IMG/VR virus record: IMGVR_UViG_3300048507_001022
Location: 1-61,690 of that record
Length of the DNA stretch: 61,690 nt
Reading direction: 5' to 3' (one strand)
Source: a virus
Taxonomy: Duplodnaviria; Caudoviricetes
The notes below the pieces were generated by a model. The model was not told the DNA's origin, did not search any database, and saw only the letters and a program-made list of their open reading frames with translations. Made by a program: the position numbers and the translations under genes. Positions 1 to 21,100 of the stretch are shown here, piece by piece (the stretch's first letter is position 1; each line of letters opens with the position of its first letter).

Positions 1-266
1 CCTGTAACAGGTATAACATCTCCATTTTCATCGTACTCGAAAGCTTCGGATAATTCATATCTATTTGTGATGAAAGAAGTCTTTAATTCTTTAAGTTCAG
101 ACGAAATATCTATACCGTCAATAAAAACCCCGCTTGTGATATTAAACGTTGGGGCATTAATTTCATTCTCATTAATAGTAACTAGCGGATTATTTATATC
201 ATCGCCAATTATATATGTGTTTGTACCTATCCTGCGGATTGGCCTTTTAATTTCAAAAAATTCCAT
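1..266 (-). CDS. hypothetical protein, probably virion-associated (partial, runs off window)
   Basis: Not in ORF track. ATG at 266, 2 nt after the stop of 269..1270; open to the edge (MEFFEIKRPIRRIGTNTYIIGDDINNPLV...). Confidence 0.7.
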   Translation of the reverse strand, partial: MEFFEIKRPIRRIGTNTYIIGDDINNPLVTINENEINAPTFNITSGVFIDGIDISSELKELKTSFITNRYELSEAFEYDENGDVIPVT

Positions 267-3677: not shown

Positions 3678-4219
3678 AGTATTTGCTCTAGGATATTATT
3701 GGCTATTTTCTTAATTTCAACATTATTCAAATTACTGAAATCTCCCCATGATAGTTCATGCTTACATTCTTTTCTTGTAATCGGATCATTTTTTAATTCT
3801 TCTTCATTAGGTGCTTCGTTTCCTATTCTATTAATATAAACAGAGGATCCTCCTTGGTTATGTATCCATTGAACTTCATTTAGGTATCTTGCGTCGGTTA
3901 TAAAAACATACTCCGATTCTGTATCTCGAGATATTAATTGCCCTATTTTCTTTACCCAACAATCAGGATCAAGCTTTCTCCTTACTTCAGATCCGTATGT
4001 GACAAGAAATGGTCTGATTATTTTTTTCTCAGAATCATTTTCGGTAAAAGATGAAATACCTATATTTGTTTTTAAGAAATCATCGCACTCTTGTTTTAGT
4101 GCGTCCGCGAATGCATATCTTTTACATTTTATTTTTCTTAACCCCAATTCTTCTTTACATAGTTCAAAAAAAGAATCCTTACCTGCTCGTGCTAATCCTG
4201 ATATTCCTATTACTTTCAT
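3674..4219 (-). CDS. deoxynucleoside monophosphate kinase
   Basis: IGISGLARAGKDS P-loop, AFADALK, ITDARYLNE. Confidence 0.88.
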   Translation of the reverse strand: MKVIGISGLARAGKDSFFELCKEELGLRKIKCKRYAFADALKQECDDFLKTNIGISSFTENDSEKKIIRPFLVTYGSEVRRKLDPDCWVKKIGQLISRDTESEYVFITDARYLNEVQWIHNQGGSSVYINRIGNEAPNEEELKNDPITRKECKHELSWGDFSNLNNVEIKKIANNILEQIL

Positions 4220-4560: not shown

Positions 4561-4663
4561 ATCTTATTTATTATTTATATAAAATAAAAATATATTATTA
4601 AACCTTATCTATTAACATTGTACAATTTTTCGTACGTACCACGTTTAAAAAATTAAATGATGC

Positions 4664-4691
4664 TTGACATTTCTCTTGTTTATGATAATAT
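4664..4691 (+). promoter_or_regulatory. sigma70-type promoter, leaderless
   Basis: TTGACA-16 nt-TAATAT with extended TG, then 7 nt, then ATG 4699. Confidence 0.7.
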
Positions 4692-4698
4692 TTATCGA

Positions 4699-5010
4699 AT
4701 GAAGAAGTTTATTCAAATTCCCACTGCTGTTCAAGATGATGTTATTAATGGAAAATTAATTGGCAATGATCTTGTAGTTTACAATTATCTCGTATCCAAA
4801 GCTGGACACGGCAAGCCTATCTTTTTTTCAAACGAGAGGATAGGCCTAGATCTCGGAGGCATGTCGTATGGTAAGATCTCTGCGAGCTTAAACAGATTAG
4901 CTAAAGCAAGACATTTAAAGAGAAGAAAAACCTGCAATAAGACATCAACACAATTAACAACTCTAGTGGTAGATAGGAGTAATATTATGATTCGAGGAGA
5001 AAAGGAATGA
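4699..5010 (+). CDS. winged helix-turn-helix DNA-binding protein (start revised from 4657)
   Basis: LVVYNYL...FFSNERIGLDLGGMSYGKISASLNRLAKARHLKR, typical of phage wHTH domains. Confidence 0.65.
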   Translation: MKKFIQIPTAVQDDVINGKLIGNDLVVYNYLVSKAGHGKPIFFSNERIGLDLGGMSYGKISASLNRLAKARHLKRRKTCNKTSTQLTTLVVDRSNIMIRGEKE

Positions 5011-5960
5011 AGATATCGGTTAGAATGGAGGGCGGCCTAGGGGATCATTTTGCCGCCAATAGATTTATTCCAGCAATCAAGGAACTGCATCCTAATTGTG
5101 AAATAGATTTATATTCGGATACAGAAGGAAAACAAGAACAATCCAATATCCTCAAGAAATTCTGGCCGTCTTATTTTAACGATATTCATGTTATAGATAG
5201 TAAAAAGTTTAAGCAATTTAAAATAAAAAGCACTAATTTTGGCGAAGAAAATTACATAGGATCAATAAAAAATATACCAGATGAAATATATCATAAAATG
5301 ACCAAGGATTATGATAAGTTTTACGATTTACACATTGATTCTTTAGATTGGTTGAATCATGATTATGCATGGTTGAAGTATTTCAATTTCTTTTCAGCTC
5401 CAGAAAGATCGCCCGAACAAGAACAAGCAGTGCCCTTTGATAATTTTATTTTGGCGCACCTATACGCTAGAGATGACGCAGATTCCAACATGGAATCCTG
5501 GTATATCAATAAATTGCTAAAAAATATTTCCAAAGATTTTAATGTTATTGTTCTATACGACGATAATTCAAAAAAAGAGTATGAAGAATTAATCTCTCAA
5601 AGCATACCTAATCTACGTTTCACACACGCCTCATTGTCGCAAATTTTTTATTTATCAAGCAAATGTACAGCTATGTTTGGAATTGATTCAGGAATAAGAT
5701 ATATACCATATCATTTTGGAAAACCTGTCTTCACTTTTTCTAAATACTGCAAGGTTTATGGCAAAACTCAATATTCATATCTTATTAGATGGTTATTTAA
5801 TGAAAAATTTGTATTTCCATTACATTTTGAAGTTAGTTCTGCGGGAGAAATAATAAAAAACACATTAAGAAATCCTGCATATAAATTATACCCCTTCTTG
5901 CTTAATGATATAGAAAAACTTGTTGCTCAAAGAAATATAACGGAATATATATCTCAATGA
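5007..5960 (+). CDS. GT9-like (heptosyltransferase-fold) glycosyltransferase
   Basis: GGLGDHF N-terminal motif; FGIDSGIRYI C-terminal motif. Confidence 0.7.
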   Translation: MKISVRMEGGLGDHFAANRFIPAIKELHPNCEIDLYSDTEGKQEQSNILKKFWPSYFNDIHVIDSKKFKQFKIKSTNFGEENYIGSIKNIPDEIYHKMTKDYDKFYDLHIDSLDWLNHDYAWLKYFNFFSAPERSPEQEQAVPFDNFILAHLYARDDADSNMESWYINKLLKNISKDFNVIVLYDDNSKKEYEELISQSIPNLRFTHASLSQIFYLSSKCTAMFGIDSGIRYIPYHFGKPVFTFSKYCKVYGKTQYSYLIRWLFNEKFVFPLHFEVSSAGEIIKNTLRNPAYKLYPFLLNDIEKLVAQRNITEYISQ

Positions 5961-6688
5961 AAGTAGCTTTGTGCTTTAGTGGTAAACTAGGTAACTGGCA
6001 AGGTTGTTGCGACTCAATACTACAGAACATCATCGCCCCACTTAAGCCTGATATTTATTTTGCGACATGGAACACTGAAGATTATCAAAACTTCTTCAAG
6101 CAATATCGCCCCACCAAATTCATGGTTCATGATGAGAGTTGTATAAAAACATTTGATATTTTCAAACACGAAGTTGAACCAAACCCTGCATTGCTTCCTA
6201 TGTTAATAAACATGAAAGCTGTATATAAGGTGATTGAAAATCAAAAAACTAAATATGATTTAGTTATTAGATTAAGACCTGATATTCAAGTACTAGAACA
6301 AATAAAAATACATGAAATACAAGATTGTATAAAATCAAAAAGCATAAGACTACCATTCTTCGAAAGCTCAAATATATATAACCATGAAGAAGAATTAAAA
6401 AAAGAGTTTGCATTCAGCTTTGTTTACGATCAAGCCTCCCTACCCAACCAAGTTAATGATCAAATCGCTATTGGCCATCCAAGTGAAATGAAAAAATATA
6501 TGTCTTGCTTGGATAATTATGTACATGCAATCAATTTATTATGGAACGAAGGATATCCTGAATATATGATTAAAGTAAATGAATCAGTATTAACAATTGC
6601 ACTTCAATTAAAAAACTGTAAATACAAACAATTAACAGGAACTAATTCATTTAATAATATAAAAACAAAATTAATTAGACAAATTTGA
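5957..6688 (+). CDS. putative glycosyltransferase (GT-A-like)
   Basis: MKVALCFSG, DIYFATW, YDLVIRLRPD, VNDQIAIG motifs typical of glycan-locus proteins. Confidence 0.6.
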   Translation: MKVALCFSGKLGNWQGCCDSILQNIIAPLKPDIYFATWNTEDYQNFFKQYRPTKFMVHDESCIKTFDIFKHEVEPNPALLPMLINMKAVYKVIENQKTKYDLVIRLRPDIQVLEQIKIHEIQDCIKSKSIRLPFFESSNIYNHEEELKKEFAFSFVYDQASLPNQVNDQIAIGHPSEMKKYMSCLDNYVHAINLLWNEGYPEYMIKVNESVLTIALQLKNCKYKQLTGTNSFNNIKTKLIRQI

Positions 6689-6709
6689 TTTTAATTACAT
6701 TATCATATA

Positions 6710-7612
6710 ATGAAAACACCAATTGTACTTACTGCATACAATAGACCCGATTACTTCAAACAGGTATTAGATTCTGTATCAAGTCAGTGTTGGGATAGAA
6801 AAGTATATTGTGTAATAGACGGACCTAGATTTAAAGAAGATGTAGATTTAGTAAAAAAATCCTTTGAATTATCAAAACAAATCATACCTCATTGCGAAAC
6901 TGTTGTGGCCAACTCCAATCAGGGAGTAGCTAAAATAATGAAGTATGCCAGAGAATTAGTTTTTAAGGATCACGAGTTTCTAATATTAATTGAAGATGAC
7001 TCGGTACTACAACCGCATTATATTCAACAGCTAGATCTATTAATTGATAAATTTAGAGATGACGAAAGAATTGCAATGATAAATTGTTTTGGCGAACATC
7101 ATAGATCAAAAAAAACACATAAATATTCATACATCGATTATACTGGAGAACAAAATAATAGAGTCTCATTTCAAGAACAAGAAAATAACAAAGATAAATT
7201 AATTCTCATGGACCATCTGTGGGCATATGCTATGAGAAGAAGCTCTTATGAGAAAATCTTAGATATCATGGAGGGTTTCTGGGCTTTATTACCTCAGGAA
7301 TATAGAGCTCGCCCTCATTTAAAAATACTTGAATATATGTCTCAATTTGGAGTAGATCCAAATAAAATTGTATCAAGTCAAGACTCCTGCACTTCATCAG
7401 CTTTAGTCTCAAGAGGTATGATTAAAGTCTCAACATTTACAAACAATTTTGAATATATAGGAGAAATAGGAGAACATAGCAGACCTAATAATTTTAGGGA
7501 AGCTGGTTGGTGCGACCAAGATGTTTACGGTTCATATCAAGACGATTTCGCTTGGAATGAAGATGTCTTTAATGAAATTAAAACTCATGCCGAAAATAAG
7601 TATTTAAAATGA
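6710..7612 (+). CDS. GT-A glycosyltransferase (GT2/GT13-like)
   Basis: PIVLTAYNRPDY, IDGPR, ILIEDD, late YIGEIGEH motif. Confidence 0.8.
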   Translation: MKTPIVLTAYNRPDYFKQVLDSVSSQCWDRKVYCVIDGPRFKEDVDLVKKSFELSKQIIPHCETVVANSNQGVAKIMKYARELVFKDHEFLILIEDDSVLQPHYIQQLDLLIDKFRDDERIAMINCFGEHHRSKKTHKYSYIDYTGEQNNRVSFQEQENNKDKLILMDHLWAYAMRRSSYEKILDIMEGFWALLPQEYRARPHLKILEYMSQFGVDPNKIVSSQDSCTSSALVSRGMIKVSTFTNNFEYIGEIGEHSRPNNFREAGWCDQDVYGSYQDDFAWNEDVFNEIKTHAENKYLK

Positions 7613-8145
7613 ACGTACCAAATCAACCATGGATGTCTCAAGAGGAGATCAATCTCGTATTAAGTTTTTTAAAAAAAGATGATATAATGCTCGAATATGG
7701 TTGTGGAGGTAGTACCATGTTTTTTCCTAAATATGTAAAAGAATATTACAGTATTGAATCAGATAAATCTTGGGCAAATTCAGTTGAAAAAATTATGCCA
7801 AAAAACGTAAAAATGCATTGTATTCCAACCATAAGGCCCGAAGACCCAAATCAAAAACATGCAGTAAAATGGAACCAACTCTATACAACTAAAATGTATG
7901 AAGCTTACAAAGAGTACATAGAAACAGGTTCAAAAATTAATAAAAAATTTACAAAAATATTAATAGACGGAAGAGCTAGACCTCAATGCGCAAGATATAT
8001 GTATGACTTCATAGATAAAGACTGCATTATATTTATGCATGACTGGCACCCAGGGCGCACACACTACAGATCCATTCTTGAAAAATATAGAGTAATAAAA
8101 GAAACTCGCAGAGGGCAAATGATAGCAGCCTTAACTAAAATTTAA
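7609..8145 (+). CDS. class I SAM-dependent methyltransferase
   Basis: MLEYGCGGST, SIESD, ILIDGRAR, FMHD. Confidence 0.8.
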   Translation: MNVPNQPWMSQEEINLVLSFLKKDDIMLEYGCGGSTMFFPKYVKEYYSIESDKSWANSVEKIMPKNVKMHCIPTIRPEDPNQKHAVKWNQLYTTKMYEAYKEYIETGSKINKKFTKILIDGRARPQCARYMYDFIDKDCIIFMHDWHPGRTHYRSILEKYRVIKETRRGQMIAALTKI

Positions 8146-8161
8146 AACCAAACAACAATAC

Positions 8162-8755
8162 ATGAATCAAAAAAAATATACAGCCCTAGGGCCAGGACCA
8201 ACCATAGCAAAAGCCTTACGAAGGAAAAGTTTAGATCTATGCATGGAAATAGGGGTATTCGAAGGGGCTACCTCAAACCTAATAGCTAGACACCTATCAA
8301 AGGAAGGGAAATTGATTTGCATAGACCCACTAGAGGATAAATATATAACCACAGACATAAGCGAAAAAACAAAAGAATTAAACGAAACTAAATGGAAATA
8401 TTTCAGCGGCCAATATGAAAGATTTATACATAACACTAAAGACCTCATATCTTCAGGTAAAATAGAATTAATAAGGGAAACTAGCGATAACGCATTTAAA
8501 AAATTGGGTAATATAAAAAACCTAGTCGATTTCTGCTATATCGATGGAGACCATAGAACTAAAGCCGTACTCAAGGATGGAATTAATTGTCTCGCAGCCT
8601 GCAAGGTTGGCGGCATGATACTCTTCGATGATTACAAATGGGGAAAAGGAGACTTCGATTGCGGAAAAGGTATCGATATCTTTCTTAATGAGAATGAAGA
8701 TAATTTGAAAATTTTAGAAAAAAACCAACAAGTCTTGGTTCAAAAAATAAAATAA
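8162..8755 (+). CDS. class I SAM-dependent methyltransferase (Methyltransf_24-like)
   Basis: EIGVFEG, CIDP, YIDGDH, GGMILFDDY. Confidence 0.85.
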   Translation: MNQKKYTALGPGPTIAKALRRKSLDLCMEIGVFEGATSNLIARHLSKEGKLICIDPLEDKYITTDISEKTKELNETKWKYFSGQYERFIHNTKDLISSGKIELIRETSDNAFKKLGNIKNLVDFCYIDGDHRTKAVLKDGINCLAACKVGGMILFDDYKWGKGDFDCGKGIDIFLNENEDNLKILEKNQQVLVQKIK

Positions 8756-8762
8756 TATACAT

Positions 8763-9578
8763 ATGAAAATTGTAGCAGGAATACAATGTTACAACGAAGA
8801 AGACTTTATAAGGGAAACTTTATTAAGTTTATACGATTTCTGCAGTAAAATAGTTATTACAGAAGGATGCTGGTCTAGCGGAATAAAAAGCGGTAAGCCA
8901 GCAAGAAGCTTTGATAAAACAATGGATTACATAAAATCAATCCCCGATCCACTAAATAAAATTAAAGTATTCCACTATAACGGCGAATCTCAAGCTGACC
9001 ACAGAAACTTTACTCTAGAAAAATGCAAACAGTATAAGCCAGACTGGTATTTGAATGGTGATGGAGATGAAATTTTTCATGAAAACGAGTTGGACAACCT
9101 AATTGATATTTTTAATTCAAAAATAAGATCGGTCAACCCGACCCACAAGTTATTCTGGAACGGTTTAGAATTTTACGAAAAATGGAAACCTATGGGTAGA
9201 TTCTTTAACTTTACCAAGCTAGATTTAAATAAAGTAAAAGCATCAAAAATTCACTGCAACCACATAGAGTACACTAGCAACATATTCCGTAACCCAGTCA
9301 CCCCAAAAGATATCTACATTTACCACCCATCGTACAGCAAATGTATTGATAGGCAAAAATTTAAAATAGACCACAGAACAATAGATAATAAAAAAAAATT
9401 CCCCCACTACATAAAAGATAACTTAATCATAAGAGGCAATCAGGACTTAAAAACATGGCTGAGTTCACTAAAGAGACAAGAACTAGCAAAACTACCAAAG
9501 TATCTACAGAACCATTATTTATGCAAAAAAAACACACAGTTCCATAATTTAATTAACGCAACAATAACACACAATTGA
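8763..9578 (+). CDS. GT2-family glycosyltransferase
   Basis: CYNEEDFI, WYLNGDGDE (DxD), IYH. Confidence 0.75.
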   Translation: MKIVAGIQCYNEEDFIRETLLSLYDFCSKIVITEGCWSSGIKSGKPARSFDKTMDYIKSIPDPLNKIKVFHYNGESQADHRNFTLEKCKQYKPDWYLNGDGDEIFHENELDNLIDIFNSKIRSVNPTHKLFWNGLEFYEKWKPMGRFFNFTKLDLNKVKASKIHCNHIEYTSNIFRNPVTPKDIYIYHPSYSKCIDRQKFKIDHRTIDNKKKFPHYIKDNLIIRGNQDLKTWLSSLKRQELAKLPKYLQNHYLCKKNTQFHNLINATITHN

Positions 9579-10270
9579 TGATTCCGAAAAAATTATTCAC
9601 ATCTTATAAGCCTGATTTAGAAAAATGTAAAGAATGTCAATCCATCGTAGAAAAATGGAGAACCCTAAATGAAGGGTTTGAGGTTCATTACTTTTCAGAT
9701 GAAGACGTAAGGATTTTTTTTGAAAATTTTAAAGTCGCGAAAGAAACCTATGAGACTCTTAATAATGGCACTGCCATAGCTGATTTTTTTAGAATATCAC
9801 ACATTTATAAAAACGGAGGAATATGGTTTGATTTCGATATGGAACCATTTCAGCTATCTAGCAAATTCGATCTAAAAGAATTAGATTGTAACGAAAATCT
9901 TTTCTTTGACCTTGGACATAAAAATATAAGTTATATGCTTATTTCCGGCAAAGAAAATAGCAATCTTTTCCTTAACGCAATTAATTTTATCTCAAAAAGA
10001 GTCTTGTCTTCCGCTCACTTAATTAAAGGGAAAAATATATACCCAGGCCTACAAGTAGTAGGTCCACATGCATTTCAAAATTACATATCAAAGGAATTTG
10101 AAGTTACAGCAATAGATGGGCTTTTTCCCGCTGATAATAAAACGCATCAATCAAGAAACTCCCTAGCATTTAAGTATCTAACTTGCTATAACCTAAATAA
10201 AAAAACCGAAAAATACTTAACCATATCAAACACTCATAAAACAAAACACTGGAGAGAATATCATATATGA
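9575..10270 (+). CDS. GT32-like DXD glycosyltransferase
   Basis: MIPKKLF, ADFFR...GGIWFDFD, GP motif. Confidence 0.8.
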   Translation: MMIPKKLFTSYKPDLEKCKECQSIVEKWRTLNEGFEVHYFSDEDVRIFFENFKVAKETYETLNNGTAIADFFRISHIYKNGGIWFDFDMEPFQLSSKFDLKELDCNENLFFDLGHKNISYMLISGKENSNLFLNAINFISKRVLSSAHLIKGKNIYPGLQVVGPHAFQNYISKEFEVTAIDGLFPADNKTHQSRNSLAFKYLTCYNLNKKTEKYLTISNTHKTKHWREYHI

Positions 10271-11643
10271 TTAAATTAATTATATTTGATCTAGATGGAG
10301 TGTTAGTTGACTCTCGCGAATTACATTACATCGCACTCAATAAAGCTCTATCTGAAATAGGTGATCAATATACAATTAGTAAAGAAGAACACCTTTGTAA
10401 ATACGATGCATTAACAACAACTCAAAAATTAAAAAAGTTAAGCGCCGAAAAAAATCTTCCAGAAAAATATCACAACAGAATCTGGAAACTTAAGCAGCAA
10501 AAAACATTACAAGAAATAGATAACTATCAGCGCGACTACAGAATAATAGATATTTTTAAAAAATTAAAATCGCAAAACTACAAAATTGCATGTGCAACAA
10601 ACTCTATAAGAGAGACTTCAAAATTAATGCTAATAAGAAAAGGTTTTTTTGATTATATAGATTTTTTATATTCAAATGAAGACGTCAATCACCCTAAGCC
10701 CAACTCCGAGATTTATATGAGGTGCATGTTAAGATGTGGAGCCAATCCAGATGAGACAGTTATCATAGAAGATTCTCATATAGGTAGAAAAGCGGCTAGT
10801 AGAAGCGGTGCGCATTTATGCGCTGTAAAAGATTCAAATGACTTGACATTTACTAAGGTAAATAATATTATACTTAACGCAGAGAAGCAATCTAAAATTT
10901 CACCAAAATGGCAAGGAGATAAAATGAATGTATTAATACCTATGGCAGGAGCAGGTTCTAGGTTTGAGCAAGCTGGATATACTTTTCCAAAACCTCTTAT
11001 TGATGTAAACGGAAAGCCTATGATTCAGCGAGTCGTAGAAAACCTTAATGTAGATGCAAAGCATATATTTATTGTTCAAAAATCTCATTACGAAAAGTAT
11101 TCATTAAAGCACACCTTAAATCTTATATCACCAAATTGTGAAATCGTGCAAGTAGAAGGCATGACTGAAGGGGCTGCCTGCACAACTCTTTTAGCTAAAG
11201 AATTAATCAATAACAACGAACCTTTAGTTCTTGCAAATTCTGATCAATATGTCGATTGGGATAGTAATCAATTTATGTACGCATCAATGGCGGATGATAT
11301 AGACGCATCAATTCTAACGTTTCATTCCACTCATCCAAAATGGAGTTATGCTAAATTAAATGAAAACGGATTTGTGGTAGAGGTTGCAGAAAAAAAACCT
11401 ATCAGTGAACACGCTACAGTTGGAATTTACTTTTGGAAGAAAGGTTCTGATTACGTTAGATGCGCGGAATCAATGATACAAAAAAACATTCGAGTAAACA
11501 ATGAATTTTATGTTTGTCCAGTTTACAACGAAGCATTATTAGAAGGCGCCAGAGTAAAAACTTTTCATATCGATAAAATGTGGGGATTGGGCACACCTGA
11601 AGATTTAGATACCTTTTTAAAACATGATATTAGTATCTCATAG
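10267..11643 (+). CDS. HAD phosphatase fused to sugar-phosphate nucleotidyltransferase
   Basis: N-terminal FDLDGVLVDS, KP, IEDS; C-terminal LIPMAGAGSRF...PKPLI, ANSD, WGLGTPEDL. Confidence 0.9.
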   Translation: MIKLIIFDLDGVLVDSRELHYIALNKALSEIGDQYTISKEEHLCKYDALTTTQKLKKLSAEKNLPEKYHNRIWKLKQQKTLQEIDNYQRDYRIIDIFKKLKSQNYKIACATNSIRETSKLMLIRKGFFDYIDFLYSNEDVNHPKPNSEIYMRCMLRCGANPDETVIIEDSHIGRKAASRSGAHLCAVKDSNDLTFTKVNNIILNAEKQSKISPKWQGDKMNVLIPMAGAGSRFEQAGYTFPKPLIDVNGKPMIQRVVENLNVDAKHIFIVQKSHYEKYSLKHTLNLISPNCEIVQVEGMTEGAACTTLLAKELINNNEPLVLANSDQYVDWDSNQFMYASMADDIDASILTFHSTHPKWSYAKLNENGFVVEVAEKKPISEHATVGIYFWKKGSDYVRCAESMIQKNIRVNNEFYVCPVYNEALLEGARVKTFHIDKMWGLGTPEDLDTFLKHDISIS

Positions 11644-12046
11644 AGGAAATTTGACTGGACCTAATCCAGAAAAAGAAAATCACCCAGATTACATTAAAGA
11701 AGCTTTATCTAAAGGCTTTGATGTTGAAGTAGATATTTGGGGAGATAAAGAATTATGGTTTGGTCACGATAAACCTCAATACAAATGCTCTCTCAGCCTT
11801 CTTATAAATAATTATCAAAAACTATGGATTCACTGCAAAAACTTAGTTGCTATAGATATATTATCAGAGTTCAAAGTTTTAAATTACTTCTGGCATCAAA
11901 ACGACGACTATACATTAACATCAAAAAATTTCATTTGGACTTATCCAGGAAAATATGTTTGTAATAAAAGCGTTCTTGTTGTAGATGACGCAAGAGAATA
12001 TGCTGGACCTATTTGCTTTGGTTTGTGTTCAGACTATATTCTGTGA
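11624..12046 (+). CDS. small GDPD/PLC-like phosphodiesterase-fold protein
   Basis: SHRGN, ENHP, DVEVDIW, GHD, WIHCKN, CSD. Confidence 0.7.
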   Translation: MILVSHRGNLTGPNPEKENHPDYIKEALSKGFDVEVDIWGDKELWFGHDKPQYKCSLSLLINNYQKLWIHCKNLVAIDILSEFKVLNYFWHQNDDYTLTSKNFIWTYPGKYVCNKSVLVVDDAREYAGPICFGLCSDYIL

Positions 12047-12915
12047 ATGATACTGATAAGCTTTTCTCAAACTATTTTGGCCACAATGAACACTTAAGTT
12101 CTAGTCAAAGATTTTACTATAAATTCCTCAAGAATCATCTCTCTACAATGGAGAGATATTCTAACACTGTATCAATAATCATACAAGGTCCATTAAACAA
12201 TAGATCTATAAACACAATAGATAATTATCTTAAATACGGCGAAGTTATAGTTAGCTGCTGGAATAACAACGATATATCAAAACTAGATAAATATAAAGAC
12301 AAAATAAAAATCGTAGTTAATAATTATTATGATGTTAAAGATTTGCAAATTAAAACAAATTTAAAAAACCCAAATATTTTTCAAAACCATACAACATTAA
12401 ATGGACTAAAAGAAGCTAGCGGATTTTTTTCAATAAAATTAAGATCTGACGAATCCTACCCTAACCTTAACAACTTGATATCTCGACTGAAATCAATCAG
12501 AGATTCTAAAGATGATCGCGGCGTTTATAATGATCATAAAATAATTACTTCTAATATTTATTTCAGATTCGACAAACAGGCAAAATTTCATCCCTCGGAC
12601 CATATCATTGCAGGCCAAACAAAACGCATGATCGATATATTCAAGAAATCTACTTTTTTATCTCACCAAAAAAACATAAAATTATCCCCCGAACAAATTA
12701 TATGTAAAGCCGCGATCGAAACATATTATGATCCAATAAATAAAAAACATGACTACTTAGATAATGCAAGATCAATAGAGTTAATGAAAAAGCATTTTGA
12801 TATCATAAGAATAAATAGTTTACCCAATTGTATATGGACATCTAGCTATAGAAAATATGATCCATTAAGAGCAGAAGAAGTATGGTGTCATGATATAAAT
12901 CAACTAGATAAATAA
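12043..12915 (+). CDS. WavE-like glycan synthesis protein
   Basis: SIIIQGP, IVSCW, N..FQ..TTLNGL, KLRSDE, FHPSDHIIAG, PEQ; GTG start overlapping upstream TGA assumed. Confidence 0.65.
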   Translation: MNDTDKLFSNYFGHNEHLSSSQRFYYKFLKNHLSTMERYSNTVSIIIQGPLNNRSINTIDNYLKYGEVIVSCWNNNDISKLDKYKDKIKIVVNNYYDVKDLQIKTNLKNPNIFQNHTTLNGLKEASGFFSIKLRSDESYPNLNNLISRLKSIRDSKDDRGVYNDHKIITSNIYFRFDKQAKFHPSDHIIAGQTKRMIDIFKKSTFLSHQKNIKLSPEQIICKAAIETYYDPINKKHDYLDNARSIELMKKHFDIIRINSLPNCIWTSSYRKYDPLRAEEVWCHDINQLDK

Positions 12916-12918
12916 AAG

Positions 12919-12946
12919 TTGATAAAACTAATATTGTTTATATAAT
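12919..12946 (+). promoter_or_regulatory. sigma70-type promoter, near-leaderless
   Basis: TTGATA-16 nt-TATAAT, then 5 nt, then ATG 12952. Confidence 0.65.
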
Positions 12947-12951
12947 CATGC

Positions 12952-13509
12952 ATGAGTATTTCATTATATAAACCAAATAGTAAAAACACAGGTTGCGCAT
13001 TTAATTTTAAAATGGGAGTCAACAAAAAAAAGGAACCAGTAATTTATGTTAGCGCTATTCAACAATATAGTTGGGACGAAAAACGAAAAACTGGTAACTT
13101 TTCTGGAAATCGAGATGACGCAGAAAAAAAGATAAACGTTAAATTTTCAGAGTTTGAAATCGGGGGATTTATTAGCGCTTTTTCTAATCGTCATGAATAC
13201 TCTACATTTCATAGCTACGAAGACAACAAGACTAGCATAAAATGTGTTCCATGGGACAAACAAGTTAAAAGCGGATCTGAATCTATTGTGGTTCCTGCAT
13301 TTGGAATTACTTTAACCAGAAATGGAAACCAAACATTTCGCGTACCACTTGAACCAGGAGAAGTAGAGGGATTAAAATCTTTTTTTGACTTTTACCTCAA
13401 AGAACTTTACAGACATCGCAGGAAAGTTGAAATTGCTCAATATCAAAAATCTTTAGAAAAAGATGAGTCCCCAGCAGAAGCTCAAGAGACTTCTGAGGCT
13501 CCCTTTTAA
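12952..13509 (+). CDS. Whirly/PC4-like ssDNA-binding protein
   Basis: Collinear motif matches to plant Whirly (see findings); acidic tail ending SEAPF. Confidence 0.6.
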   Translation: MSISLYKPNSKNTGCAFNFKMGVNKKKEPVIYVSAIQQYSWDEKRKTGNFSGNRDDAEKKINVKFSEFEIGGFISAFSNRHEYSTFHSYEDNKTSIKCVPWDKQVKSGSESIVVPAFGITLTRNGNQTFRVPLEPGEVEGLKSFFDFYLKELYRHRRKVEIAQYQKSLEKDESPAEAQETSEAPF

Positions 13510-15416
13510 TGAAGAAGAAAAAAATATTAATACATAGCAATCATTGCAAAGCGTTTACTGGTTTCGGTAAACACACTAAAAATATACTTATTCACTTATA
13601 CAAAACGGGTAAGTATGATATTGTTGAGTTTTCAAATGGGGTAAGGTGGGGAGATGAATCATTAAAAACTTTACCATGGAAATGTGAAGGATCTCTACCT
13701 AACGATCCCGCAATACTTAGTCAACTTAATAAAGATCCTAATTTAGGTAGAGCTGCCACATACGGCTCCCACACAATCGACAAATTCATAGAACAAGAGA
13801 AACCCGACGTTTATATCGGTATAGAGGATATATGGGCTTTCTCAGGCTTTACGGATAGGCAGTGGTGGAATAAGATAAACTGCATGATTTGGACTACTCT
13901 CGATAGCCTTCCTATCTTACCTGATGCAGTAAAAAATGCGCCTAAAATAGAAAACTATTATGTTTGGGCTTCTTTCGCTGAAAAAGCCATGAAAGAATTA
14001 GGTCACGATCATGTAAAAACATTACATGGAGCATTAGACACTCAAAACTTCTTTCGATTAAAAGATGAACAAAGATTACAATTAAGAAAAAATAATAATA
14101 TATCAGAGAATGATTTTATTATTGGATTTGTATTCAGAAACCAATTAAGAAAAAGTGTTTCTAATTTATTAGAAGGATTTAAAATATTTTGCCAACAAAA
14201 TCCAGAATCAAATGCAAAACTACTTTTACATACTCACTGGAAAGAAGGTTGGGATATACCTAGATTATTAAAAGAAAAAAATATTGATCCTAAAAGAGTA
14301 TTAACAACATATGTTTGTAAACAATGCAGACAGTATGAAGTAAAACCTTATACAGAAGAAGGTGTTGATTGTAAATATTGTGGTTCAAAGAAATCTCAGG
14401 TAACTACTAGCACTAAGGCTGGAGTTACTGAACCTCAATTAAATGAAATTTATAATTTAATGGATGTTTATTGTCACCCATTTACTAGTGGTGGCCAAGA
14501 AATACCTATTCAAGAAGCTAAATTAACAGAGTTAGTAACATTGGCAACAAACTATAGTTGTGGAGAAGATTGCTGCACACCAGAAAGTGCAGGGCTTCCA
14601 TTATCGTGGACTGAATACCGTGAACCTGGTACTCAATTTATTAAAGCTAGTACAGATCCCAATAGTATCGCCAGTCAATTAAGGAAAGTTTTCAATATGA
14701 ATAAAAAGAAACTCTCAGAGCTTGGAAAGAAAGCTCGAGATTTCGTTATTGAAAACTATAGTATTGAATCTATTTGTGAAAAACTTGAGAAAATTATTGA
14801 TAACATGCCCGAAAAATCTTGGGATTTTAATTTCAAGAAGGAAGAAAAAGATGCAAGTTATAATCCTCCAGAAATAGAAAGTGACTCGGATTGGATTAAA
14901 GATATATATAAAAATATATTAAAACTAGATATTACAGAAAGTGATGAAGGTTACAAACATTGGATGTCTAGATTAAATTCAGAGCTCAAACGAGAAGACA
15001 TATTAAAACATTTTCATAAAGTTGCTGAAATTGAAAACCAAAAAAATGCAAAAATAGAATTCGAAGAATTACTAGACAAGGATGATGAAGGAAATAGATT
15101 ATTAATTTCCATGCCAGAGAGTATTGGCGACGTATATATGTGCACATCTTTACTTAAAAATATAAAAACAACATATCCAGAATATAATATTTATTTCGCA
15201 ACAAAACCAGAATACTTTGAAATATTAGATGGAAATAAATATATACATAAATGCATTCCGTATAATAAAGCTCTTGATCGCCTAACAGCAATGGAAGGTC
15301 AAGGTAATCATAAAGGATTTTTTGAAATAGCATTCTTACCATTTATTGGGACTCAACGAATGCTCAATTATATTCATAACGGCAAAGATAAAATACAATT
15401 TGATTTATGCACTTAG
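13509..15416 (+). CDS. multidomain glycosyltransferase: GT4, Zn ribbon, DUF4214-like helical domain, GT9 N-terminal half
   Basis: TGFG, RNQLRKS, SGGQEIPIQEA; CKQC..CKYC; WIKDIYKNIL..DEGYKHW; ISMPESIGDVY. Confidence 0.75.
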   Translation: MKKKKILIHSNHCKAFTGFGKHTKNILIHLYKTGKYDIVEFSNGVRWGDESLKTLPWKCEGSLPNDPAILSQLNKDPNLGRAATYGSHTIDKFIEQEKPDVYIGIEDIWAFSGFTDRQWWNKINCMIWTTLDSLPILPDAVKNAPKIENYYVWASFAEKAMKELGHDHVKTLHGALDTQNFFRLKDEQRLQLRKNNNISENDFIIGFVFRNQLRKSVSNLLEGFKIFCQQNPESNAKLLLHTHWKEGWDIPRLLKEKNIDPKRVLTTYVCKQCRQYEVKPYTEEGVDCKYCGSKKSQVTTSTKAGVTEPQLNEIYNLMDVYCHPFTSGGQEIPIQEAKLTELVTLATNYSCGEDCCTPESAGLPLSWTEYREPGTQFIKASTDPNSIASQLRKVFNMNKKKLSELGKKARDFVIENYSIESICEKLEKIIDNMPEKSWDFNFKKEEKDASYNPPEIESDSDWIKDIYKNILKLDITESDEGYKHWMSRLNSELKREDILKHFHKVAEIENQKNAKIEFEELLDKDDEGNRLLISMPESIGDVYMCTSLLKNIKTTYPEYNIYFATKPEYFEILDGNKYIHKCIPYNKALDRLTAMEGQGNHKGFFEIAFLPFIGTQRMLNYIHNGKDKIQFDLCT

Positions 15417-16582
15417 TAGAACAATATGCGTTAAGTTGTGGGGTTAAAATTGATCAGCCTCATATAGAGCAATCTTATTATCCAATTATACATGATAAGT
15501 TTATAACTCTTCATGCTAGTAGCGGTATGGGTTCCAAAAATTATGATTACTATAAAGATGTAATTGAAATGATCATGCCTTATCTACAAGAGCAAGACAT
15601 ACAAATTATTCAAATCGGAGATAAAAAAGATCAAAAAATTAATGGATGCATAGATTATTGCGGAGCAACAAATTTAAAACAAAGCGCGTATTTAATTAAT
15701 AAAGCTCTTCTTCATTTCGGAAATGATTCGTTTAGTGCTCATGTAGCTTCGGGTTTTGATACTAAATTAGTTTGCTTGTATAGTATCTTATATAAAGAAT
15801 GCTGCGGACCATATTGGGGAAATAAAGAAAATCAGACTTTAATAGAGTCAGACAGAATGGGCCTCAAGCCATCCTTCTCCAATAAAGAAGCTATTAAAAT
15901 GGTTAACCGAATCAAACCTGAACAGGTAGCCTCAGCAGTATTAGATCTTCTTGATATATCTCATACGATAAACAAGATAGAAACAATTCATATTGGTAAA
16001 GAATATCATCTTCCAACAATTTCTGTAATACCGAATCATGTTATGCCTAAAAGTTTTGCGGCTGGTCAAGCAGTCAATATTCTTGGAGATGAATGTTTCG
16101 AACCTCAAAATATTGCCCACTGGGCAAACAATAGAATCGCGAATATCTTTATAGATCAGCCAATTAAAATAAACTATCTTAAACTTATACAAAAATTCAT
16201 ACATCAGATAAACTACTATGTATCAATGGATACCGATATATCTTATATAAATAGCGTTAAAAATATAGGAATAAAAATCAATCTATTATGCAAAGATGAA
16301 AATATATTAAATGATTTAAAAATTAAATTTTTTGATGATGGAGTAAAACTTGTAAAGAAAAAAACAAAAAAAGATCTTGACAACATAGATTTAATATGCG
16401 ATAATAGTCGTTATAAAAATTCAAAGAAAATTATTTCTAACGGGAAAATCTATTCCAGTAAAGCCGCATATTCCCAAGGCTTAGAAGGAGATCATGACAA
16501 AATCATTGATTGTGATGAATTCTGGGAAGAACTGGATACAATAAAAATTTATAATGACACCAACACAAACAGCGACAGATAA
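15407..16582 (+). CDS. GT9 C-terminal half plus unknown domain
   Basis: HLVEQYA, ITLHASSG, IIQIG, GATNLKQSAYLI, GNDSFSAHVA. Confidence 0.7.
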   Translation: MHLVEQYALSCGVKIDQPHIEQSYYPIIHDKFITLHASSGMGSKNYDYYKDVIEMIMPYLQEQDIQIIQIGDKKDQKINGCIDYCGATNLKQSAYLINKALLHFGNDSFSAHVASGFDTKLVCLYSILYKECCGPYWGNKENQTLIESDRMGLKPSFSNKEAIKMVNRIKPEQVASAVLDLLDISHTINKIETIHIGKEYHLPTISVIPNHVMPKSFAAGQAVNILGDECFEPQNIAHWANNRIANIFIDQPIKINYLKLIQKFIHQINYYVSMDTDISYINSVKNIGIKINLLCKDENILNDLKIKFFDDGVKLVKKKTKKDLDNIDLICDNSRYKNSKKIISNGKIYSSKAAYSQGLEGDHDKIIDCDEFWEELDTIKIYNDTNTNSDR

Positions 16583-17378
16583 CTCAGTAACATTCGAATC
16601 AGAAATTAAAACAAAACCACGCAAAACAAAACTGCCTAAAAATTACGCAGAAGGACCTGGTAAATTCAAGAGAAACGAATTTGGGTTATTAGATTATGTT
16701 GATTATTCTTTTGCGGAAGATGGATCAGTAAATTGGAGATCAATGATTAAAGATGAGCATTTATTTCCGAATCGTTCATGGTTTGATTTAAGAAAGAAAG
16801 ATATGCCGCGAACAATTGACGGACTAGGTGATCATCAACTTTTGATCAAACTTAGCGGTATCAAAGAACTTGCAAAGCTTAGGGGTTTTTCTGATGTATC
16901 ATATGAGACTGTAAAGTGTGAAGCAGATCATGTAGCAGTTATATGTAAAGTAACATTTTTACCCAACTATGAAACCGGAGGTAAGTTAGTCACTTTTCAA
17001 GATATGGCTAATGCTACATTAGATAATACAAGTAGTTTCGCGACAAAGTTTTTAGAAACTATTGCTTGTAATCGAGCATTTGTACGATGCGTAAGAAATT
17101 TTCTTAATGTTCATATCGTAGGAGACGATGAAATAGATAAATCCAATAACAAGCCAAACAACTCATCTAGTTCAGCGCCGTCATTAAATCCACATTCTAT
17201 GGTAGAAAATTTAGCAAAAGATAAATTAAACTGCTCTAGTTTTGAAGAATTTAAAGTTGTATTGCGAGACTGGTGGAGTACAGGTAAGTATAAGAATAAT
17301 GAAGTTAAAGACTGGAATGATTACTCAGATATTCCCGCAACTCACGCCAGAATACTTATGAAACTAATGAACGATTAA
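16554..17378 (+). CDS. Rad52/Sak-like single-strand annealing protein
   Basis: IKLSGIKELA, FQDMANA, ETIACNRAFVRCVR helix resembling the annealase fold. Confidence 0.5.
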   Translation: MTPTQTATDNSVTFESEIKTKPRKTKLPKNYAEGPGKFKRNEFGLLDYVDYSFAEDGSVNWRSMIKDEHLFPNRSWFDLRKKDMPRTIDGLGDHQLLIKLSGIKELAKLRGFSDVSYETVKCEADHVAVICKVTFLPNYETGGKLVTFQDMANATLDNTSSFATKFLETIACNRAFVRCVRNFLNVHIVGDDEIDKSNNKPNNSSSSAPSLNPHSMVENLAKDKLNCSSFEEFKVVLRDWWSTGKYKNNEVKDWNDYSDIPATHARILMKLMND

Positions 17379-18145
17379 CGTTCTTTTAATTCTTTTATTT
17401 CTGCGCGCATTTCTTCAATAATTTTTTGTTGGTCTTGTATTGCTCCAACCAGCAAAGGAATAACCTTTTCGTACTTCATTGCTAAATAACCATCAGGTCT
17501 TTCGCTTACAATCTCTGGAGCAATACCACTAACCTCTTGAGCTATTAAACCTATATCGTGACCATAATATCTACTTTGATTATCGGACCAATCGAACTCA
17601 ATAGGATTTAAAGATTGAATTTTATTCAAAGAGCCTGACAAATAAGTTATGTTATCCTTTAATCTTTCATCTGAAGAGGCAAATGCGATGACATCATCGG
17701 TAGCTTCTATTTTCCCATCAACAAATATGTCACCGACTATAGACATGCCATTTGAAGTTTGTATCTGTCCATTAAGAGTTAAATCTCCATACAAATCTAA
17801 GCCCATTCTGGCCTCTATAGGGCCATAAACATGAAGTCCATTATTACACCCTAAATATATCGCATCACTTAGTAAAGGTTTCGAAGGATCATTTGTTCTA
17901 AATCCATCACCAATAATATGAGTATTATAATTACCTACAATTTTATTATAAGCTCCATTTATTATTGTACATCTCCTAGAATTAATAATTTCATTATTTA
18001 CTCCCTGTATAATTGCATTGCTAGGTTCATAACCTGAAAGAGTATTAAATTCATTGCCTGGAGGAGTAAATTCAAAACTACCTGGATCATAAAATGATAA
18101 AGGTGAATCTTTAATCGTCGAGGGTATATTAACTGGATCAGACAT
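17375..18145 (-). CDS. tail fibre/spike protein with S74 intramolecular chaperone
   Basis: SSDERLKDNI, GLIAQEV, YEKVIPLLVGAIQ plus terminal coiled coil. Confidence 0.9.
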   Translation of the reverse strand: MSDPVNIPSTIKDSPLSFYDPGSFEFTPPGNEFNTLSGYEPSNAIIQGVNNEIINSRRCTIINGAYNKIVGNYNTHIIGDGFRTNDPSKPLLSDAIYLGCNNGLHVYGPIEARMGLDLYGDLTLNGQIQTSNGMSIVGDIFVDGKIEATDDVIAFASSDERLKDNITYLSGSLNKIQSLNPIEFDWSDNQSRYYGHDIGLIAQEVSGIAPEIVSERPDGYLAMKYEKVIPLLVGAIQDQQKIIEEMRAEIKELKER

Positions 18146-18167
18146 AATTATATTTTCATTAAATTTA

Positions 18168-21100
18168 TTACAAGGTTAAAATTCCTACATCTTGATAGAT
18201 TGAAGTATTTTTATTATAAAAAAGAACCTTATTATCCGCGGTTCTACAAAACCCGAATTGATCTCTTGTAAGATTATAAAACCACTGACCAACAACATCC
18301 TCATTATTGTTTTTGGCTTGCATAGTAGTAGAATTTGTCCAATTCCAACCGTTTATATTAGTAGAGCTTGTGCCCCTAGTCCAGTAAGTAGTTGTTGACG
18401 ATGCAGAGGGTTTTTGTCCCGAATGAACTACTCTACATGTATATTTATAGGGATGCCAATCAACTTCGGAAACATAAACAATATCACCAACATTGTATTT
18501 TTTATCCTGACTCCACTCTTCCCCTTGAAAGGGAGGATGAAACCACATAGAGCCTTCCTGGGCGCTTGAACTATTAAAAATTATAAATACCCAACCTGAT
18601 ACTGAAGTTTTGAGAAAATTTTGAGCAAAAGCCCAACCTACTTCATTAAAAGCAGGAAAGTCCCCGCGTGTCATCTGAGAAGTGATATTGCTAGAGGTTG
18701 AAGCGTTTGGAGATAAATAAGCTGCAGTAGAGAACCAAGTGTTTTCGATCCATATTCCACCTGAAGATCCTTCTAAGCCTATATAAGCCGCTCCCTTTAC
18801 AGTTCTATTCCAAAATTCAGAATTATCATTTTTAAAGGGTTTTTGCCCCGAATGAACTACTCTACATGTATATAAATGAGCTGCCCAATAACCATTATCA
18901 TCTTCACCCCAATCAGTTTCAGAAACATAAACAATATCATTTTCATTATATGTTTTATATTGACTCCATTCTTCTCCTTTTCCAAAAAAATAACCACTTA
19001 AAAAATAGCCGCTATCACTTACAACACTTTTTATTTCTTCTCCATATATTCTTTTTATAGTTATAGGGTTTTCATCGCTATCATGAATAATTTTATTAAA
19101 AGTTCCACCTAGTATAACTTGATTACTTCCTCCTTCAATTTTATTAACCTGGCCAGCTCCAATGAAATTAGCTCCTTCATTTTCTTTATCATTATCAGGC
19201 ATTGAATTTTTATAGCCTGCGGCAATTGCAGAAAAATTATCATCACATTCATTTTTATAACCTGCACCTATAAAAGAAAATCGTCCTTCTATTTTGTTTT
19301 CTCCTCCACCTATAATTGCAGACGCTAATCCCTTATATGTAATTGGGCTCCTAGTCCAGTAAGTAGTTGTTGACGATGCAGAGGGTTTTTGCCCCGAATG
19401 AACTACTCTACATGTATATTCATAGGGCTGCCAATCAGCTTCGGAAACATAAACAACATCATCAACATTGTATTCTTTATCCTGATTCCATTCATTATGT
19501 ATAGTATTAGCAAATCCTCCTGCAATAAATGTGGCTTTTAAATTATTATTGACTGCTAGAAATGCTGACCAATCAATAGAGACGCTTCCAACAGCCGAAC
19601 TATCGGTTAGTAGTGTTCCATTAAAATCAACTGCGTTTAATTGTAATTGCTTGGTGGAACTGTCAAATCTTAAATATGAATTTAATCCATTCGCTATTTT
19701 CGCTCCTATATCAAAATAAACACTTTCTTCCTTTGTTCTAGCTAATAAAAATCCTGCAGTAGAATAGTCCTCGTTCCCCTGAGTTATAACGGCAGGAGGT
19801 CCATCTTCTGTATTGTATAATCCACCCTTAAATTTTGCAGATACAATAATTCCATCTTTTGCAGCGGTTAATTGATTTCCTCCTTCGCCAAGAGTTAATT
19901 TTTGTTGCACAAAAGCTTCTTTTGTTAATAATAATTCAGTGGCTACGCTAGAAAATTCAGCACCAAACTCTTTCCAATAATCTGAAGTAGACGAAGGAAT
20001 TTGTGCACTTGCAATACTAGTATCAGGCCCACTATCTTGAATAGCTATATAATATTTTAAAGTACCTTCATGATAAACAATATCACCTCTCCCAGGTTGA
20101 TTATTTGCAGCAACCGGATCTACAGCATAATAATTTTCGCCTTCTGAGTATTTACCTCTAAATGTTGGAGATCTACCTTCTTCTCCTTTATCTCCTTTTT
20201 TACTAAAAACGACTCCAGGAGTTAACCAATTTATAGTTGCATCTTCTTGATTTTTGTAACCATAAGCGACTCCAACTAGAACGCTAATTTCATCCGACGA
20301 ATCCAAACCTACAGGGCTCGATGTCCAGCCGCTATTGATATCATCACCGTGTATACTTAATGGGCTAGTATTTGACCCGTGATTAGAAAAATCGTATGTC
20401 GTGTCAGTACTAGGTGTTTCTGTAACGTCAAGAGTGCCTTGTTTATAAATATAAACTTCAGCTATAGCATCAGCGTCTACTCTAAATACCTCTCCTTCTG
20501 TTTCATTTCCGTCTTTATCTGTGGTGATTTTAATAGCCCATAAAAAACCGCCTTCGCCAGGAGGATCATTTTTCCAATTATCATCATATGATGGAGCCGT
20601 ATTAGTAGGTGTTGTTGTAAATTTGAGATTAACTGAAGAACCATTATCTCCGGGCGCTCCATCGCTAATTAAAGATATTGTTGTAGATGTTTCTATACTC
20701 GCACCAACTCCTGATGCATATAATATAACTGCAGACTCTGAATATGTATCGTATATATTATCAAAACCCGGATTTATTGAACTTGGAGAACTTATCTGAC
20801 ATTCAAACTCAGCATGTGCGATTTTTATATCTTGATCAGAAAAATCCTGAAAGCCATCCGTCGGATCATATGTAAAACCTGATATAGAATTATCGACTCT
20901 ATTCTCAAATTCATCATATGTAAAAACGCTTTGACCATTTGCTGTAGTCATTCTAAATCTAACATCTTCAGCAGATATATCACTATTTTGATATCGCGCA
21001 TAAATATCAATAGCTTCCTGGCTGTCAGGATTTAAATCACCATTTACATCTTCACTATAATAAAAATAAGAAGGTTCTGCACTTAAATTAATAAAAGTAT

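Follow-up and report, generated by a model that had tools for sequence, protein, structure and literature searches.

The window analysed here is a whole IMG/VR virus record (61,690 bp, estimated to be 42% complete), and the subject of this report is one of its genes, an open reading frame (ORF) at positions 12952 to 13509 that encodes a 185-residue protein. This protein belongs to a distant branch of the Whirly family and ends in a tip like that of bacterial proteins that bind single-stranded DNA (ssDNA), the SSBs. What is new is a Whirly-family protein that carries an SSB tip and is encoded in the replication region of a large uncultured marine phage lineage. We consider it fairly likely that the protein is a homotetrameric ssDNA binder that acts, with its SSB-type tail, as an SSB-like factor of the phage replication and recombination machinery. 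On sequence evidence, the SSB-like function appears well supported by the tail and the genomic context. The gene and the parts of its product are as follows.

12952-13509, + strand: Whirly-like ORF, ATG at 12952, stop codon at 13507-13509, 185 residues
12952-13350, + strand: Whirly domain, residues 1-133 (AlphaFold2, Foldseek, VIA-align, family profile)
13354-13467, + strand: long C-terminal helix, residues 135-172 (AlphaFold2 secondary structure)
13468-13509, + strand: tail ESPAEAQETSEAPF and stop codon (pLDDT of 63 to 67 in the last two blocks)

An earlier reading of the letters alone (the sequence-only reading) had proposed this ORF, which is real at these coordinates; its product begins with MSISLYKPNSKNTGC and closes with ...AQETSEAPF, the end that reading had described. 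A 36-nucleotide (nt) gap separates the ORF from the preceding gene; at 13509, its stop codon and the start codon (ATG) of the following gene overlap. The source is a large tailed phage, as indicated by lambda-type tail-tip genes (Pfam Phage_tail_L, 152 bits; Phage_min_tail, 84 bits), a tail-fibre chaperone domain, and very long ORFs (2528, 1487, and 2324 residues) in the tail region beside the tail-tip genes (18168-42961, − strand). It is probably a siphovirus, and it originates from seawater metagenomes.

Fold and family of the phage protein

An AlphaFold2 model of the protein, built on 43 relatives, reached a pLDDT of 93.5 and a pTM of 0.83 and comprises two repeats of a sheet and a helix, then a long helix at the C terminus and a tail of low confidence. 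The first repeat is formed by strands at residues 2-7, 15-23, 29-37, and 60-65 and a helix at 67-79, and the second by strands at 83-89, 92-107, 110-123, and 127-133, with the first half of helix 135-172 contributing both to this repeat and to the predicted tetramer core. In the model, a single chain thus contains two beta-beta-beta-beta-alpha repeats with Whirly topology, as the sequence-only reading had anticipated from the letters. An extra hairpin at residues 40-49 distinguishes the phage protein from plant Whirly.

When the model was compared with the PDB by Foldseek, ranks 1 to 10 were all plant Whirly proteins (E, 1.3e-5 to 8.4e-5), followed by MRP1/2 and Pur-alpha. VIA-align, a structural aligner independent of Foldseek, placed three folds in a tie at the top: StWhy2 (Z, 15.5; root mean square deviation [rmsd], 2.8; 134 residues aligned), PBF-2 (Z, 15.4; rmsd, 3.5; 138 aligned), and MRP1/2 (Z, 15.4; rmsd, 3.2; 131 aligned). 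The next fold was Pur-alpha, with a Z of 8.2. Structure prediction followed by Foldseek had been named beforehand as a check on the Whirly proposal, and the predicted fold is that of Whirly.

At the sequence level, the protein taken alone gave no Pfam Whirly (PF08536) match at E≤10 and lies below the gathering cut-off of that family (23 bits); the Pfam search gave only chance-level rows (tRNA_anti_2; E, 0.12). A six-frame PF08536 search of the whole record returned no match at E≤1. Searches of PHROGs (E, 0.22) and of PDB sequences (CD8 alpha; E, 0.1) with the single protein likewise gave only chance-level rows, with no Whirly protein among the PDB sequences, and a narrow family profile, A1, missed Whirly in the PDB sequences. 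A profile made from 92 diverse family members, A2, matched six PDB sequences at E≤10, all of them plant Whirly (StWhy2, 2e-5; AtWHY2, 1.1e-4; PBF-2, 4.5e-4; WHY1, 5.7e-3; WHY3, 7.2e-3). Nine of the 92 A2 members themselves matched PF08536 at E≤0.01. Ten clade medoids were also compared with PF08536: two passed the 23-bit cut-off (P0235, 26.4 bits; P0250, 25.1 bits), two scored below it, and six gave nothing; both passing medoids had been retrieved by the A1 profile at E of about 1e-23. Because of the A2 matches and the PF08536 matches among relatives and medoids, we conclude that the phage family is a genuine distant branch of the Whirly family and that the window protein lies just out of reach of single-sequence detection.

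The sequence-only reading had listed seven motif pairs, in order, between the phage protein and plant Whirly. Four of the seven agree with the HMMER alignment of A2 with StWhy2, in which the NVKFSEFEIGGFIS region of the window protein faces ALSATEVGSLIS, the STFHS region faces SEFFHD, the strand region with FGITLTRNG faces YFISLSVVNN, and FRVPLEPGEVEGLKSFF faces FTVPVTTAEFAVMRTAF. A fifth, IKCVPW, lies inside the aligned stretch and in the correct order. The N-terminal SLYK pair is compatible with the structural ranges (model 1 onwards on StWhy2 59 onwards), a comparison made at the level of ranges. The pair QYSWDEKR and QYDWSRKQ is ambiguous: the alignment does not support it and sets plant YDWEKRQ against residues about 54-60 of the window protein. 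The KGKAAL motif, which serves ssDNA binding and assembly in higher plants, is missing; the window protein reads SLYKPNSKNTGCAF, and Tyr-Lys alone is kept. The residues that are invariant in the family (K7, P8, N9, Q38, W41, and F50) all lie off the predicted tetramer interface.

Prediction with four copies of the chain gave an ipSAE of 0.92, compared with 0.02 for the best of three controls. Of 30 proteins solved as same-chain pairs, 20 reached this mark, as did 1 of 23 solved as single chains. Runs had at least 67% of their contacts in common, with partner pLDDT of at least 86, and the predicted interface is formed by helices 67-84 and 134-160. A helix-held homotetramer, another check named in advance, is therefore what the model predicts; since plant Whirly tetramers have already been solved, the result may reflect likeness or memory rather than independent evidence. 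Taken together, the fold, the profile matches, and the predicted tetramer bear out the proposed Whirly homology. The likeness to plant Whirly (potato PBF-2 p24/StWhy1, StWhy2, and Arabidopsis WHY1-3; PF08536) covers the two-repeat fold (Z, 15.4 to 15.5), profile-level homology that includes the E-x-G helix start and the F-H motif, the predicted helix-mediated homotetramer, and an acidic C-terminal region with a key aromatic residue in both. Unlike plant Whirly, the phage protein is viral, has no transit peptide, and begins at strand 1.

An SSB-type C-terminal tail

The tail, ESPAEAQETSEAPF, consists of an acidic stretch with a terminal Pro-Phe, like the C-terminal tip of SSBs, and the model suggests that it is probably flexible. 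Its last residues (...ETSEAPF) have the features by which an SSB tip is recognised, an apparently flexible acidic tip with Pro-Phe at the very end. A canonical SSB of the oligonucleotide-binding (OB) fold is encoded in the same window.

2693-3079, − strand: OB-fold SSB, 128 residues, ending ...DDEFADIPF (Pfam SSB, 86.4 bits; phrog_44, 3.8e-29)

Among the 220 family members of at least 160 residues, 127 end in PF and 160 have an aromatic last residue, and a mean of about 3 of the last 10 residues are acidic. Divergent relatives end in EDDDIPF, DDDDLPF, or EDDGIPF. For locus analysis, 80 of the 420 viral contigs that encode a relative were fetched, and only 1 of the 1149 other distinct ORFs in these 80 loci ends in PF. 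The PF ending is thus specific in these loci to the Whirly-like gene and the OB SSB gene; this specificity and the DIPF end of the co-resident OB SSB support the SSB-type tail that had been read from the letters. Compared with a bacterial-type OB SSB (PF00436), the phage protein shares the acidic flexible tail ending in Pro-Phe and, probably, a tetrameric state and the same kind of job; it differs in its Whirly fold and gave no PF00436 match in the Pfam search.

The two tails were compared in 64 distinct Whirly/SSB locus pairs. PF was found on both proteins in 19 pairs, while in 8 the SSB ended in PF and the Whirly protein otherwise (6 of these with an acidic stretch plus CPI). In 6 pairs, the SSB ended in EFEF and the Whirly protein had no acidic tail, and in the remaining 31 no SSB lay inside the fetched flank. 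The association between the two tails (Fisher p, 0.003, uncorrected for shared ancestry) reflects few independent events, because the six EFEF pairs belong to one clade. One lineage (loci L055-L062) combines an SSB ending in EFEF instead of PF, loss of the Whirly acidic tail, and absence of the glycosyltransferase-like pair described below.

In bacteria, many proteins of replication and repair dock on the SSB tip, which is also able to fold back on the OB domain. The acidic Pro-Phe tail of the phage protein may act in the same manner, in which case it would dock tip-reading partners, either the phage DNA polymerase III (Pol III)-type replicase or host SSB clients. In the absence of DNA, the tail could also, or instead, fold back onto the surface that binds it. 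The predicted homotetramer would bind ssDNA on its beta-sheet faces and would probably serve the phage replication and recombination machinery as an SSB-like factor.

Two further observations concern the surroundings of the OB SSB gene. Beside it (3072-4219, − strand) are encoded a protein with weak matches to sigma-factor and transcription-regulator PHROGs and a deoxynucleoside monophosphate (dNMP) kinase, an enzyme often present in phages with unusual nucleotides. Also beside the SSB gene, about 11 kb from the Whirly gene, is a gene for a 114-residue protein of no known family (1294-1638, − strand); a homologue lies directly upstream of the Whirly gene in 14 related loci (L055-L073).

Replication genes and other SSBs in related phages

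A more distant, sister clade, reached through P0250, comprised 55 viral loci. In 54 of these the gene order was PD-(D/E)XK nuclease, PHP, RNase T-like exonuclease, Pol III alpha, and Whirly, with an epimerase sometimes between the last two. The Pol III alpha of this clade has 858 residues (DNA_pol3_alpha, 179.9 bits). After the Whirly gene, the sister clade has the same glycosyltransferase-like pair and 274-residue protein as the window. Among the 80 closer loci, Pol III alpha lies 4 to 6 kb upstream of the Whirly gene in 8 (within a 10-kb range), and it is present somewhere in the genome in all five complete genomes of the window's clade.

Three sister-clade genomes that are at least 91% complete (203, 178, and 158 kb) were searched for other SSBs, and none of the three matched Pfam SSB, phrog_44, gp32, or an Enc34/gp2.5-type SSB; the gp32 and Enc34-type (PF10991) absences are weak, because neither search gave a match in any control genome. 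Some phages (the three sister-clade genomes) thus have no recognisable SSB candidate besides the Whirly protein, whereas in others, namely, the five complete genomes of the window's clade, all of which have an OB SSB, it is a second one. Since the window lineage retains a canonical SSB, the Whirly protein is not required there as the sole SSB. The proposal of a phage class of SSB, made in the sequence-only reading, gains from the adjacency to Pol III alpha and from the three sister genomes, and it is weakened by the OB SSB kept in the window lineage; its support comes from context.

Promoter and four-gene block

The Whirly gene would be expressed from its own promoter as the first of a four-gene block whose members overlap or abut. 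The features involved are as follows.

12919-12946, + strand: sigma-70-like promoter candidate, TTGATA-16 nt-TATAAT, 11 of 12 consensus positions
13509-15416, + strand: 635-residue glycosyltransferase-like protein (phrog_2170 glycosyltransferase, 2.4e-19; DUF4214, 2.1e-6)
15407-16582, + strand: 391-residue GT9 (heptosyltransferase-like) protein (Glyco_transf_9, 33.5 bits; cut-off, 22)
16554-17378, + strand: 274-residue conserved protein, candidate Rad52-superfamily annealase (beta-beta-beta-alpha core, residues 112-184)
17369-17383, + strand: weak terminator-like hairpin, 5-bp stem with 3 GC pairs, then TTTTAATT

The promoter candidate sits in the 36-nt gap upstream of the Whirly gene, and its score is equalled by only one other site within 11500-18500. 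Of 59 distinct upstream sequences from related loci, 40 have a relaxed pattern (TTGnnn-15..19-TAnnnT) just 5' of the gene, compared with 7.6% of 20000 random windows from the same loci; in the loci that lack it, the gene mostly abuts the preceding one. The gene's own promoter, which the sequence-only reading had claimed, is thus plausible from its consensus score and its recurrence in relatives, although consensus matches as such are not enriched in 11500-18500 (25 found, compared with a shuffle mean of 37.4). Only 5 nt separate the end of the -10 element from the ATG, which would make the predicted message almost leaderless; a Shine-Dalgarno sequence is not visible. Fragments of 12000-17400 are covered by contigs from RNA-labelled libraries, among them 13385-13624 without differences (run X16); because such libraries can hold DNA and the contigs show neither strand nor ends, they are no evidence of transcription or of a promoter. 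The hairpin that closes the block can also be read on the minus strand, where it is common to the convergent tail-fibre gene.

The block is conserved. A gene for the 274-residue protein lies downstream of the Whirly gene on the same strand in 76 of the 80 loci, and the remaining 4 are cut by the contig end. In 71 of 80 loci, the five same-strand ORFs that follow the Whirly gene include the 635-residue gene, which comes immediately after it in 69 of 80 and is also present in 52 of the 54 sister-clade loci; the 391-residue gene, which overlaps both neighbours, is conserved in 41 of 54. The 635-residue protein also scored 25.6 bits against Glycos_transf_1, just below the cut-off of 26.4, and neither glycosyltransferase-like protein had a match among PDB sequences. 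The pair (13509-16582) is locked between the Whirly and 274-residue genes in two divergent clades (L002-L081 and L092-L146), and a role in DNA or virion glycosylation is possible. Upstream of the Whirly gene, positions 4657-12915 hold a run of sugar-nucleotide and glycosyltransferase genes (a DXD glycosyltransferase, a HAD hydrolase-nucleotidyl transferase fusion, and a WavE-like protein), whose content differs among related phages like that of a variable island.

The sequence-only reading placed the Whirly gene in one unit with an annealase. The co-directional four-gene block is real and conserved; the 274-residue protein is only weakly Rad52-like, and the two glycosyltransferase-like genes that stand between it and the Whirly gene had gone unmentioned. 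The model of the 274-residue protein (pLDDT, 74) gave its longest alignments with RAD52, Mgm101, and Red-beta, all of them weak (Foldseek E, 0.02 to 0.12; VIA-align Z, 5.8 to 6.7), and the best VIA-align row was an unrelated protein with a higher Z of 7.4. Leads from a language-model atlas (SSAP_Sak, 0.89; Rad52, 0.88) fell below that tool's line of 0.9. The protein had no Pfam, PHROG, or PDB sequence match, and 32 of 32 members gave only chance-level Pfam rows; a profile of the family, A3, found 3518 relatives, and among the 120 listed none had a name or a Pfam domain. From the modelled fold, a Rad52-like annealase is plausible, and the Whirly protein may work in partnership with it.

Alternative functions

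Several observations weigh against an SSB-like replication factor. The OB SSB is kept in the window itself and in all five complete genomes of its clade, with one copy each, and the gp32 and PF10991 searches were silent in the control genomes as well as in the sister clade. The tail is missing in part of the family. KGKAAL, the ssDNA-binding motif of plant Whirly, is absent, with YKPNSKNTG in its place; algal and liverwort Whirly-like proteins also lack it, according to PMC9070903. The closest structural relatives include the RNA-binding MRP1/2, and the only phage Whirly-fold protein that has been studied prefers RNA (PMC11077065). The steadiest immediate neighbours are two glycosyltransferase-like genes rather than replication genes. 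Finally, the tetramer score may reflect the model's memory of solved Whirly tetramers.

Some of these points would fit a protein that binds RNA, as a chaperone or matchmaker of mRNA in the manner of trypanosome MRP1/2 or jumbo-phage ChmC, and is not a factor of DNA replication. MRP1/2 and plant Whirly fit the model equally well (Z, 15.4 for MRP1/2), and the absence of KGKAAL would be in keeping with such a role. ChmC (PhiPA3 gp61 and phiKZ gp67, from nucleus-forming jumbo phages) is likewise a phage-encoded protein of Whirly-type fold, so that Whirly-type folds in phages are already known; it forms a homotetramer, its C-terminal region is disordered, and its binding of single-stranded nucleic acid is tighter with ssRNA than with ssDNA (PMC11077065). 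ChmC differs from the window protein in its beta-beta-beta-alpha repeats, its RNA preference, its role in mRNA handling, and its lack of an SSB-type tip. An alignment of A2 with phiKZ gp67 by hhalign gave a probability of 0.1% (E, 0.5), that is, no profile similarity, and among PDB sequences the A2 profile matched plant Whirly and not MRP1/2. With a tail like that of the phage's own SSB, Pol III alpha next to the gene, and some genomes with no other recognisable SSB, we regard an RNA-directed role as quite unlikely.

A second possibility is a modification module in which this protein is the nucleic-acid-binding subunit and the two glycosyltransferase-like proteins are its partners; it might, for example, present DNA that is to be modified with sugar, and its link to replication would then be indirect. 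The order Whirly, 635-residue glycosyltransferase-like, GT9-like, and 274-residue gene, found in 71 of 80 loci and in most of the 54 sister-clade loci, would suit such a module, as would the overlapping genes, the sugar-nucleotide genes upstream, and the dNMP kinase nearby. In seven loci, however, the 274-residue gene follows the Whirly gene directly with no glycosyltransferase, and there the 114-residue gene precedes it and an SSB gene lies about 2 kb upstream. The glycosyltransferase matches are like enzymes that handle sugars of the cell envelope, with no known DNA glycosyltransferase among them; the tail, for its part, suggests SSB-type partners. We judge this arrangement improbable as an account of the protein's function.

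The tip might instead be a decoy that captures or blocks host SSB-docking proteins, or the protein might replace the OB SSB where host defences sense the latter. An SSB tip copied on an unrelated fold is what a decoy would look like, and a normal SSB is co-resident in the window's lineage. The conserved surface residues of the Whirly domain and the deep conservation beside the polymerase favour real nucleic-acid work, and no defence or anti-defence gene was seen nearby, in a neighbourhood for which no PADLOC scan was made; a decoy is therefore very unlikely. The role first suggested for potato PBF-2, that of a sequence-specific transcription factor, is hardly credible, with the family name, the first described plant function, and a sigma-factor-like gene in the window on its side, no evidence here of a DNA target, and a tail and neighbourhood that suggest replication.

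Relation to known proteins and possible origin

The phage protein is close to several known groups. The PC4-like protein of phage T5 and bacterial YdbC/SP_0782 are ssDNA binders of the PC4-like superfamily, and the T5 protein has been implicated in recombination-dependent replication (PMC7549692). These proteins have a single repeat and complete the domain by dimerising (type II), whereas the window protein has two repeats per chain (type I), and its match is to Whirly, not to PC4. Among viral proteins, the best structural match was UniProt A0A6J5NR37 (Foldseek E, 5.5e-6; TM, 0.70 on the target), automatically named "Whirly transcription factor [uncultured Caudovirales phage]"; it has 141 residues, compared with 185, and is 18% identical. 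Databases thus already label some phage proteins Whirly. No study of A0A6J5NR37 was found in the literature searched, and, by titles and abstract openings, none of the papers describes a Whirly protein from a phage that has an SSB-type tail or lies in a replisome context. Whirly is still called plant specific or plant unique in reviews and in a 2026 preprint (PMC9070903; 10.64898/2026.10.24.761589).

In plant Whirly, ssDNA binding is dampened by a conserved C-terminal Glu-Trp motif that touches a lysine of the Whirly domain, and mutation of the motif raises binding (PMC9070903). In the phage protein, by contrast, the aromatic residue closes the chain as part of an SSB-like ...PF tip. In the sister clade, the tails end with acidic residues plus Trp, a point of likeness with plant Whirly, or with Ile/Val-Phe. 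It is conceivable, if unlikely, that Whirly arose as a non-OB replicative SSB in marine Pol III-alpha phages, that plant organelles took their Whirly from such a phage, and that the acidic-aromatic tail is ancestral and survives as the plant Glu-Trp motif. Other components of the machinery that replicates and transcribes organellar DNA are likewise held to come from phages. Were this true, Whirly could be the sole SSB of a Pol III-alpha phage lineage.

Here, a very large and almost purely viral family is tied to plant Whirly by both sequence and fold and sits with a phage replicase, so the origin of Whirly becomes testable by phylogeny. The protein is small, soluble, and easily expressed, which suits it for asking how a non-OB fold takes over SSB work. 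An SSB tip on an unrelated fold is, moreover, a natural experiment on what the tip peptide recruits. For annotation, a common "hypothetical protein" that abundant marine phages encode receives a name.

Family size and distribution

Close relatives of the window protein numbered 246, none with a Pfam domain, and an exhaustive profile search yielded 664 clusters at 50% identity (E≤0.001). The family is large and, among the finds, almost exclusively viral. One atlas cluster is 63% viral, with PF08536 on 13% of the members. A tblastn search of 50,697 deposited phage genomes with the window protein, two divergent relatives, and the 274-residue protein found nothing, and the A2 profile had no match in the 400 plus 400 genomes sampled from two phyla. 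A pattern scan over the genomes of 185,579 species returned eight loci, all in metagenome-assembled genomes of mixed phyla, and these are probably mis-binned phage contigs. One relative from a metagenome-assembled genome (G010:C11:27406-27948) has a TGA within the match; the copy may be broken, the sequence may contain an error, or the genetic code may be a different one. In BFVD, the Whirly-type model was matched by several proteins of large Bacillus phages (W.Ph. gp208, gp212, and gp230, and BPS10C) and of Acinetobacter phage ME3. These are uncharacterised proteins (Foldseek E, 6e-4 to 1.5e-2), and the matches suggest that the Whirly-type fold is common and unstudied in cultured phages.

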